Shown here: one piece after another, positions 37,301-40,300 of the stretch
How positions within the stretch are numbered: the stretch's first letter is position 1
Layout of the letters: the number at the start of each line of letters is the position of its first letter
Source: Verrucomicrobiaceae bacterium
GTDB lineage: Bacteria > Verrucomicrobiota > Verrucomicrobiia > Verrucomicrobiales > Akkermansiaceae
Reading direction: 5' to 3'
DNA: 64,000 nt
Assembly (NCBI GenBank): GCA_051252135.1
Contig: JBPOGH010000001.1
Span: 160,001 to 224,000, forward strand
Program-made: the position numbers

Positions 37301-40300
37301 GCTGGATATGATGGATCACTCTTACTTGAATGACATTGAGGGATTGGAGAGCCCCACAATTGAGATTATGGCAGCCTGGTTCTGGCGCAAACTGGAAAAG
37401 GATCTGGCCGGCCTCTGTGAGATCGTGATTTACGAAACTCCGACGGCCCGTTGCTCGTTTAAGGGTGAGTTCTAGGGGGAGAGGGCGGAATTAGGTGAAA
37501 CTAGTTTACGATGTAGATTGACTCTTTGTGCGGACTTCTCTATTAGGGGGGAATGAGGGAAATATCGAAATTATCAAAATCTCTGGCCCTGACCGTTCCG
37601 GTGGCTGCTTCGTTGGTTGGGTCGGATTTGGAGGCTGCGGCCTATATTAAATTTGACGGTGTTGATGGGGAGGCGACCTCTCCAGGTGGCGATGGGTTTA
37701 TCAAGATCGAGTATTACAAGATCGAGATTGACCGGAGTGGGCCGAACGGGGCCGCTGCCTTTAAGAATGTTGTGGTGGCTCTTCCCATGGAAAAGGCGTC
37801 GCCCAACCTGATGCTCTCCTGCGCGACCGGTGCGGTTCTTAAGAACGCCACCCTATACGTTACAAGGACGGGGAGCGATGGGACGGAAAACACTTTCCTG
37901 AAGATTGAGTTCACCAAGGTCGTGATCGACAGCTATCGAACCACCGGTGATGGCGGAGACGATCGCCCGGTTGATGAGGTGACACTTGGATACACGGAGG
38001 TTGAATGGACCTACAATGTGCGGGATGCCGGCGGAAAGGTGATTGAGGTCATCAAGACCCCAACGCTTTCCACAGTGCCCAGATAAAATCGGCTGGCCCG
38101 AGTGAACCACGATTGTCCGATGAAACTGCGAAGCTATTTTAAAGCGCTTATCCTGATGGTGGCGATTGTGCCTATACCGTCGGTTCAAGCGGCACAATTC
38201 TACCTGAAATTGGGCGACATCAAGGGGGAAGCCAGGGCTGAGGGGTTTGAGGGGTGGATTAAGGCCGAATCATTGGGTTTCGATGGAATTGTGGCAGGTA
38301 AGGGGGGCGGTGCCATCAGGGTGATGAAGCGAATCGATGCCGCTACACCTCTGATATTGACGGCAATCTCGACCGGAAAATACATTCGGCAGGCCGAGAT
38401 TGTGCTGATCGAAGACGGTAAGGAGGGTGAAGTCCGAAATTTTGCGGTGCTCAAGCTGCGGGATGTGGTGATCGCCGGGGTTTCTCAGGAGGTATTGGAA
38501 AAGGGGGAAGGTCATTTGGAGGAAGTGACCTTGGCGTTTCGCACGATCCTTTTCAGTTATCCTTCAGCCGATGGTGAGGACTCACCGAAAGTGGCTGATC
38601 TTGGTGGAGATTTGGATTCCGATGGGGATGGAATGACTGACGACTACGAAAGATTCCACGGGTTCGATCCTGCCGTGAATGATTCCGGTTTGGATTCAGA
38701 CAAGGATGGCCTTACCAATTATCAGGAATTTAAACTTGGGTTAAACCCCAAGTCGGCACGATCTTTATTTGAAACAAGGGGGCGACCTTCATCGAAGGAT
38801 CCTTCAAAGTTCCGCCTTGAATGGGAAACGAAGCCCGGGACGGTTTACGATGTCTATTTCACGTCGGATCTTGGCGAGCCATTCAAATTCATCGAGCGTA
38901 TCACGGCTGCCGATTTTGATACGGCATGGGAGGTCGGAACCGGTGGTTTAAAAGGGTTCTACCAGGTTCGCTCGGTGTTGGAATGACGTCTATCACGTTT
39001 AATGATCTCGATGAGTGGAATCCGGAAGCCTTTCTGGATGACTTGAAAGCGGGGGGGTATTCAATTGAGCTGCTTGGATTAAGCAGCGGGGCGTCGCTGG
39101 AGATTGCGAAGATTCGTCCAAAGAGTCAGGAGCAAGAGGTTCTGAGCCGTTTGTTTTTGGCGGGGGAAGGTGTTTCGGAATCAGAGGTGCGACAAAGTCT
39201 CCCAAGGAGTTATCAATCGATTCGGGAGCTGGGGTTGTTGGTGTCAACCGGAGGAACGGTTGCCTCGAAGCTCAGGATTCGTCCGGTTGATGAGTGTTAT
39301 GTGGGAGAAGATTTCCCGAGGGTTCTGGGTGAACGGGACGACGAAATTTCGACAGAGTTTGTGATGGGGGTGGCTCCCACCACACGGATGTTGCGGCGGC
39401 TGATTCCCAACTTTCCCAGACAGCGGGTGTTGGACTTGTGCTGCGGCGGGGGATGGCTTGCGTTGATGGAGAGGGGGAGTGGTGCGGAGGTCGTAGCGAC
39501 CGATTTGAGTGAACGATGTCTTGAGGTGGCGCGCTTCAATGAACGGCTTGCGGGGGTGGAGGTCGATTGGAGGAGGGGGCCTTGGTTTGACCCTGTGAAC
39601 GGGGAGACCTTTGATCTCATCGTATCGAACCCTCCCTTTGTGCAATCTCCGGGTGGCGGTTCGATGGCGCTGGATACCCCATCGGAGGAGGAGCCACTGG
39701 GAGTGATTTTGGGTCAGATTGGCGATCATCTTAATCCGGGAGGAGTGGGGTGTGTGCTGTTAAACTGGCAGTTTGGAGATGAAGAACATTGGGACGAGAT
39801 ACCCCGGTCACTGATTCCAGGCCAAGGGCTTGAGGTGTTGCTCTTTGAAGTGAAGAGACATGACCCGGCCTCGTATGCCGAACATTGGATTCGACAGGAC
39901 ATCCGCTTCAATTCGTCTGAAAAACGAGCGGCAGAGATTGAACGGTGGGTGGAGTATCTTCGTGCCCGTGGCAGTGTGGGAGTTTCCTCCGGATTTGTCC
40001 TAGTGAGAAAATGTGAAATCGGCCGGGAATGGTTTCTGTCCGAATCACGGGAGCTGGAACAGCTGGGGCCTGATACTGCGGAGGAAATGCGGCGAGTGTT
40101 TGAGAATCAGGCTTGGTTGAAGGAGGGAGATAATGAGGGGGGGATTTTGGACGCGCGATTTGAGGCAATTTGTGGGGTTAGGAAGGAAGTGGTCTCGGTC
40201 CTTAAACCGGAAGGCTGGGAGGTTGAGGTTCTGCGATTAATTAGTCCGGGCCGGATCATGTACGATGGCCATATTGACGAGCCACTTCTCTTTTTGTTGG

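Follow-up and report, generated by a model that had tools for sequence, protein, structure and literature searches.

The two Hcp genes and the methyltransferase gene that lie in one orientation at 37553-40449 of the window (the whole 64,000-nt stretch of DNA that was analysed) combine a pair of tube-protein homologs that is independent of type VI secretion with an enzyme that may act on one of them before it leaves the cell. Our preferred reading, to which we give an even chance, is that the enzyme grips the leader of the short Hcp (HcpA) and methylates this protein before export, and that HcpA and the extended HcpB form a ring, not a tube, held at the cell surface. If so, an RRE-type domain of the enzyme would bind the motif SxxLALxxP of HcpA in the cytoplasm, the enzyme would methylate a nitrogen of the HcpA precursor, Sec and signal peptidase would export both Hcps, and these would assemble into a mixed hexamer, borne or retained at the surface through the HcpB C-terminal domain, perhaps as a scaffold or adhesin hub. 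A more specific version, which we rate somewhat short of an even chance, treats the Sec signal peptide itself as a RiPP-type leader read by an RRE-bearing N-methyltransferase, has methylated HcpA, a domesticated T6SS tube subunit, exported into a mixed hexamer held at the surface by an undescribed verrucomicrobial sorting domain, and places the locus within a broad, so far undescribed class of exported Hcp rings, other branches of which would consist of single six-domain chains.

The first gene, hcpA (37553..38086, plus strand, as for all locus features given here), encodes a short Hcp of 177 aa. A database gene call of 161 aa (P0003), which cuts off the leader, was rejected because the homologs have the same upstream Met, and the longer start is used throughout. 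The leader is a predicted Sec signal peptide (37553..37636) whose cleavage probably falls after L-E-A (residue 28), judging by hydropathy and an A-x-A pattern across homologs. It is followed by the Hcp domain (37643..38014; PF05638 at residues 31-154, E 4e-23, 82.5 bits against a cut-off of 23.5). The second gene, hcpB (38120..38986), encodes an extended Hcp of 288 aa counted from ATG. Its leader is a predicted ordinary Sec signal peptide (38120..38191) with no conserved sequence, and its Hcp domain (38201..38560; PF05638 at residues 28-147, E 1.9e-17, 64.2 bits, same cut-off) is 24% identical to that of HcpA. Two TSP3-type D-x-D-x-D-G repeats follow (38615..38734), the first matched by a Pfam profile (TSP3_bac, PF18884, residues 166-184, E 1.6e-6) and the second seen in the sequence; repeats of this type are likely calcium-binding. 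HcpB closes with an unnamed verrucomicrobial domain (38762..38983), and its stop overlaps the start of the methyltransferase gene (38983..40449) by 4 nt. The closest named homolog is verrucomicrobial. Scans for promoters and terminators at the locus gave results no better than chance. The surroundings include a gene for a PEP-CTERM protein (30790-31554, minus strand), a queD/PTPS gene 77 bp upstream (37110-37475), and a LemA and M48 peptidase pair downstream (40897-43422), none of which is common to three or more of the related loci.

The assembly, in 31 contigs and with a completeness of 96.63%, contains exactly two Hcp matches, both at this locus. An earlier note on this DNA had described two Hcps in a genome devoid of T6SS genes, and this holds: searches with the profiles VipB, Phage_GPD, Phage_sheath_1, TssF, PAAR, and Phage_base_V gave no match in the assembly, and all six of these sheath, VgrG, PAAR, and baseplate profiles match in E. 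coli, our positive control. Its count of 10 Hcp-carrying genomes among 42 of the genus was also obtained again (9 of 41 relatives plus the genome itself). When all 301 family genomes are tallied, Hcp is present in 54, VipB in 19, and both in 17; the tandem of a short and a long Hcp occurs in 30 family genomes, only 3 of which have VipB. The recurrence of a free-plus-extended pair that the note had pointed to is thus borne out, and the pair is independent of type VI secretion.

Export leaders set the Hcps outside T6SS apart as a group. We scored 101 Hcp ORFs from the retrieved loci, setting aside six T6SS copies that were nearly identical, a weak hit, and a second member, by a rule of our own rather than a trained predictor, which calls a leader where a hydrophobic stretch reaches a mean hydropathy of at least 1.6 over ten residues. 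By this rule, 89 of 90 non-T6SS Hcp ORFs have a hydrophobic leader, mostly ending in A-x-A, as against none of 11 T6SS Hcps (ten adjoining VipB and one with VipB on another contig). In ten of these 11, the ATG lies 3-5 codons ahead of the first strand; in the remaining one, a stop stands 8 codons upstream. HcpA and HcpB, unlike the leaderless T6SS Hcps, have an N-terminal extension of 27-30 residues with a hydrophobic core, and a basic n-region, a hydrophobic h-region (again by our hydropathy rule), and an A-x-A site are all present in the leaders. The signal peptides that the earlier note had proposed are upheld as predicted export leaders. Several variants were seen along the way: exported Hcps with ordinary leaders that lack the motif discussed below occur on three metagenome contigs (L250, L199, and L234; paired in L250 and L234), and eight loci (L040, L044, L053, L065, L067, L074, L083, and L084) have single exported Hcps that form a clade with the conserved insert W-K-x-N-x-R-D-x-S-A-D-R-A-G-D-L. 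The short Hcp of L033 (6472-7020, minus strand; G010) has no in-frame leader or start; its close relative L034 has one, and a frameshift or assembly error is the likely cause. Family genomes carry up to six Hcp genes each.

The third gene was described previously as a DUF7782 methyltransferase behind the Hcp pair, and this assignment stands: the product is a SAM-dependent methyltransferase in which MTS, DUF7059, and DUF7782 are all recognized. The methyltransferase is held by 21 family genomes (20 above the profile cut-off and one by tblastn) and lies directly behind hcpB in 19 of them, with a gap of −4 to +18 nt as measured in 18 relatives, together with −4 in this genome. In the other two, the Hcp pair sits at a contig edge, split from the methyltransferase (G247), or the methyltransferase stands alone without an Hcp pair (G007). 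The gene content common to all 19 loci is hcpA, hcpB, and the methyltransferase only, with no transporter or peptidase shared among them. Seven of the 19 have a nearby exported hydrolase-like protein, dienelactone-hydrolase-like by eye (such as L049:6997-7809), which is absent here. Since 14 of 34 short-plus-long pairs occur without the methyltransferase, the enzyme is not needed for the pair.

A distinctive property of the enzyme-linked operons is in the leader of HcpA. The motif SxxLALxxP (37574..37600; S8, L11, A12, L13, and P16), our candidate for the site that the methyltransferase binds, is invariant in 26 sequences, with its Pro inside the h-region. It was defined after sight of these same sequences, from genomes that are kin, and in that setting it occurs in HcpA of 19 of 19 methyltransferase operons and of the contig-split G247, and in none of 70 other leaders; among the 23,976 ORFs of this genome, it occurs once. 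A metagenome locus outside the motif-defining set (L185) again has the motif, HcpB, and the methyltransferase together. In the alignment of 26 HcpA sequences, 5 of the 8 invariant columns fall within the leader, and mean identity across the enzyme operons is 0.49 in the leader vs 0.36 in the Hcp domain. The order is reversed for HcpB of the same operons (leader 0.25 vs domain 0.32), and other exported Hcps are level at 0.26 vs 0.26. Leader-directed modification is marked by just such a combination, a conserved leader beside an enzyme with an RRE. As to the methyl acceptor, mature HcpA has no invariant Asn, Gln, or Lys in the alignment, and amino-acid composition gave no pointer. The lone methyltransferase genome, G007, has no motif-bearing protein.

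Structure prediction suggests an enzyme with parts suited to such a modification. The model of the whole methyltransferase (pLDDT 88.7) has a predicted core of the GenN/AerE type with an NPPF motif: it matches the gentamicin N-methyltransferase GenN (which we take to be PDB 5U18/5U4T) at Z 25.4 (rmsd 3.3, 307 aligned) and the RiPP asparagine N-methyltransferase AerE at Z 23.2 (rmsd 3.8, 333 aligned), the next-best match reaching only Z 13.8. The DUF7782 domain (40135..40446), folded alone at pLDDT 93, is predicted from fold comparison of the model to be of the RRE/PqqD type. Its top match is the lasso B1 protein TbiB1 (Z 9.6, rmsd 3.0, 81 aligned), followed by another lasso B1 (Z 9.1), the MibB RRE, Rv2067c, TigE, NGO1945, PKMT2, PbtF, and PqqD. 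Foldseek also brought up these families, at E values no better than 0.03. At the sequence level, PqqD profiles were weak in 2 of 20 members and above cut-off in one distant homolog, and the DUF7782 profile, run against PDB sequences, matched only designed helical proteins. Two observations count against a leader-reading enzyme: RRE-like folds also occur in leader-free protein methyltransferases (PKMT2 and Rv2067c), and AerE is leader-independent (PMC11285071).

On a rival reading, the methyltransferase has long accompanied Hcp as an accessory and takes no cue from the leader. Both Hcps would still be exported as rings or domains, the enzyme would act on the Hcp domain itself or on some other substrate, and common descent or recognition by a different export factor would account for the conserved leader. 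The distribution of the enzyme family speaks for this. In a metagenome scan, a leaderless Hcp lies within 4 kb of the methyltransferase family in 8 of 80 loci, in two of which T6SS sheath and baseplate genes adjoin the methyltransferase. The family is free-standing in Actinobacteria and an orphan in G007, and our tree of 101 Hcp domains, made by a quick method that left 43 of 98 branches unsettled, is compatible with one origin but decides neither origin nor monophyly. However, leader identity in HcpA stays at 0.46 even at domain identities of 0.25-0.35, double the 0.23 of HcpB leaders in the same operons, and the enzyme bears the predicted RRE-type fold. We regard this alternative as unlikely, although it deserves to be taken seriously.

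The enzyme family near leaderless Hcps or alone suggests that its link with Hcp is older than the leader, which may, by our inference, be this family's way to catch a precursor shortly before its export from the cytoplasm. At L214 (216-1805, minus strand) and L204 (3-1322, minus strand), a T6SS cluster of sheath, Hcp, ImpE, TssE, and TssF-like genes lies head to head with a gene of the methyltransferase family, whose product there is possibly an undescribed T6SS accessory. At least two of the 8 leaderless-Hcp loci have a small twin-arginine protein coupled to Hcp: in the high-GC loci L206 (3137-5279) and L232 (463-1513), the methyltransferase is followed by a protein with a twin-arginine leader and a weak dirigent match, and then by the leaderless Hcp, a layout that is likely also present in L220 and L242. 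An extended Hcp comes after the leaderless one in L206 and L220, and co-export by Tat at such loci is possible. Farther afield, none of the 80 distant genome loci with a match to the methyltransferase (long matches in about 38 cases; mostly Actinobacteria) had an Hcp nearby. Among 401 phylum genomes, with E≤1e-40 and three candidates scored per genome, only 3 matched for the enzyme-Hcp link, all of the family itself, and in an acidobacterial phylum sample DUF7782 occurred in 1 of 201 genomes, not adjoining Hcp.

Returning to the preferred reading, in which leader-directed methylation precedes display at the surface, the extended partner is where a surface role would reside. An iterated profile finds the C-terminal domain of HcpB, about 70 residues long, in 74 ORFs of this genome, 67 of which carry it no more than 15 aa from the C-terminus; 25 of 32 long Hcp ORFs also have it. 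Pfam offers no name for the domain, and its relatives fall in unnamed clusters. Because of its C-terminal position, a sorting or anchoring role is likely, and the domain looks like a phylum-specific sorting signal. Of the earlier description of HcpB as surface-anchored, then, the widespread C-terminal domain is firm and the anchoring is deduced. In other genomes, the long partners have inserted lectin, SdrD, Ig, or cadherin domains, which suit surface display. Dozens of this genome's large proteins close with the same domain, in many cases preceded by TSP3 repeats, and a regular-expression count gives about 133 PEP-CTERM-like ORFs in the same genome.

What the exported Hcps build is suggested by their relatives. 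Among the 149 top hits of a profile search over 1.84 billion representatives, in which summed scores favour multi-domain hits yet not six in particular, 70 have exactly six Hcp domains per chain, 8 have five, and 1 has seven. These six-domain chains are likely single-chain Hcp rings, and the six-membered ring is thus probably retained by Hcp outside T6SS. They are found among proteins P0055-P0197 (P0056, P0058, P0059, and P0069, for example) with a period of about 168 aa, and 19 of 70 have what we take to be a planctomycete-type leader and 19 of 70 what we take to be RTX-like repeats. Stacking of rings into a tube is a separate question. The segment between G-E and the Pro at the helix start, to which the alignment assigns the overhang loops, is shortened to 46 residues in HcpA and 42 in HcpB, 10-14 short of the 53-57 found in 11 of 11 T6SS Hcps. 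Among methyltransferase-linked proteins, a span of 48 residues or fewer occurs in 16 of 19 HcpB and 8 of 20 HcpA, the other 12 HcpA keeping longer spans, and in only 6 of 51 other Hcps. Loop mutants of one Hcp were unable to stack, so that loop residues were needed for stacking (PMC4650826), and, by the in vitro data given in PMC3925092, native EAEC Hcp forms no tubes and has a ring-ring KD of 7.2 uM. By analogy, a short loop span would hamper stacking.

Given the short spans, this stacking literature, and the absence of VgrG from the genome, a single ring is likelier here than an appendage. The earlier note had proposed a Sec-exported ring or tube of a free and a surface-anchored subunit, a surface appendage that needs no injection machine; in a tube, HcpA would be the shaft and HcpB the anchor. 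The ring half of this proposal remains plausible in light of the six-domain chains; the tube half finds no support. The short-then-long order in 33 of 33 pairs where both members could be read, the full-length loop span in most enzyme-less pairs, and that note's own weak complex-prediction score are all points in favor of a shaft with an anchor, but they do not outweigh the loop spans and the missing VgrG, and we consider such an appendage quite improbable. An exported ring is thus likely for the pair and a tube unlikely.

A different product altogether can be imagined, in which the cleaved, methylated signal peptide serves as a small signal molecule and Hcp is merely a passenger. The concentration of invariant columns in the leader and the K or R found in 38 of 50 leaders directly after the invariant Ser would fit such a molecule, but the loci share no transporter or peptidase, and where an RRE domain docks on a leader the modification is made at another site, which leaves little probability for this idea. 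That the pair are orphan T6SS Hcps whose machine lies in an unassembled part of the genome is barely credible, since any room that 96.63% completeness and 31 contigs might leave is largely closed by the 27 of 30 pair genomes without VipB, two of them single-contig (G057 and G094), and by the leaders that set these proteins apart from T6SS Hcps.

A literature search largely of titles and abstracts turned up no publication that treats exported Hcp, DUF7782, or the HcpB C-terminal domain, and the mention in print of secreted Hcp-domain proteins that the earlier note had cited was not located there. The Hcp passages of PMC3482391 and 10.1101/2024.11.06.622250 cover only T6SS-type or unassigned tube proteins. 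What is new here beyond that note is the conserved leader motif of HcpA and the predicted RRE-type fold of the methyltransferase. If the link between the two is true, RiPP logic reaches a secreted structural protein, DUF7782 gains its first function, and a short tag for directing methylation would be at hand. The locus draws attention, too, to an unnamed C-terminal domain carried by at least 74 proteins of a single genome. Hcp is in wide use as a T6SS marker, and Hcp-based annotations of T6SS mislead because 37 of the 54 Hcp-bearing family genomes lack a sheath.

Compared with the Hcp/TssD of T6SS (PF05638), the pair is alike by domain match, with Pseudomonas aeruginosa Hcp1 (1Y12, E 2e-10) as the best solved relative and with the helix and core strands retained. 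It differs in its export leaders, its shortened loop span, and the lack of sheath, VgrG, and baseplate, and it scores below the TIGR03344 cut-off; HcpA is without the C-terminal Trp strand motif, and HcpB adds TSP3 repeats and its C-terminal domain. The Rickettsia protein lysine methyltransferases PKMT1 and PKMT2, whose substrate is a surface protein, have a similar C-terminal winged domain (Z 7.8; Atlas lead 0.85), but the core of the present enzyme is far closer to GenN and AerE, and we know of no Hcp link for PKMT1/PKMT2. With GenN and the proteusin RiPP Asn N-methyltransferases AerE and PoyE, it shares the same two-part core (residues 1-374, Z 23-25) and an NPP(F/Y) motif, whereas sequence identity is 18-21%, an RRE-type domain is added here, and the candidate substrate is a folded 150-residue protein, not a small peptide. 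In the RREs of TbiB1, lasso B1 proteins, MibB, NisB, and PqqD, the three strands and three helices resemble the DUF7782 model. Relative to RRE-dependent RiPP maturation, the candidate leader here is also a signal peptide and the loci contain no RiPP protease or transporter, so that the locus at most works like a RiPP pathway, one whose neighboring precursor with a conserved leader is present in 19 of 19 operons.
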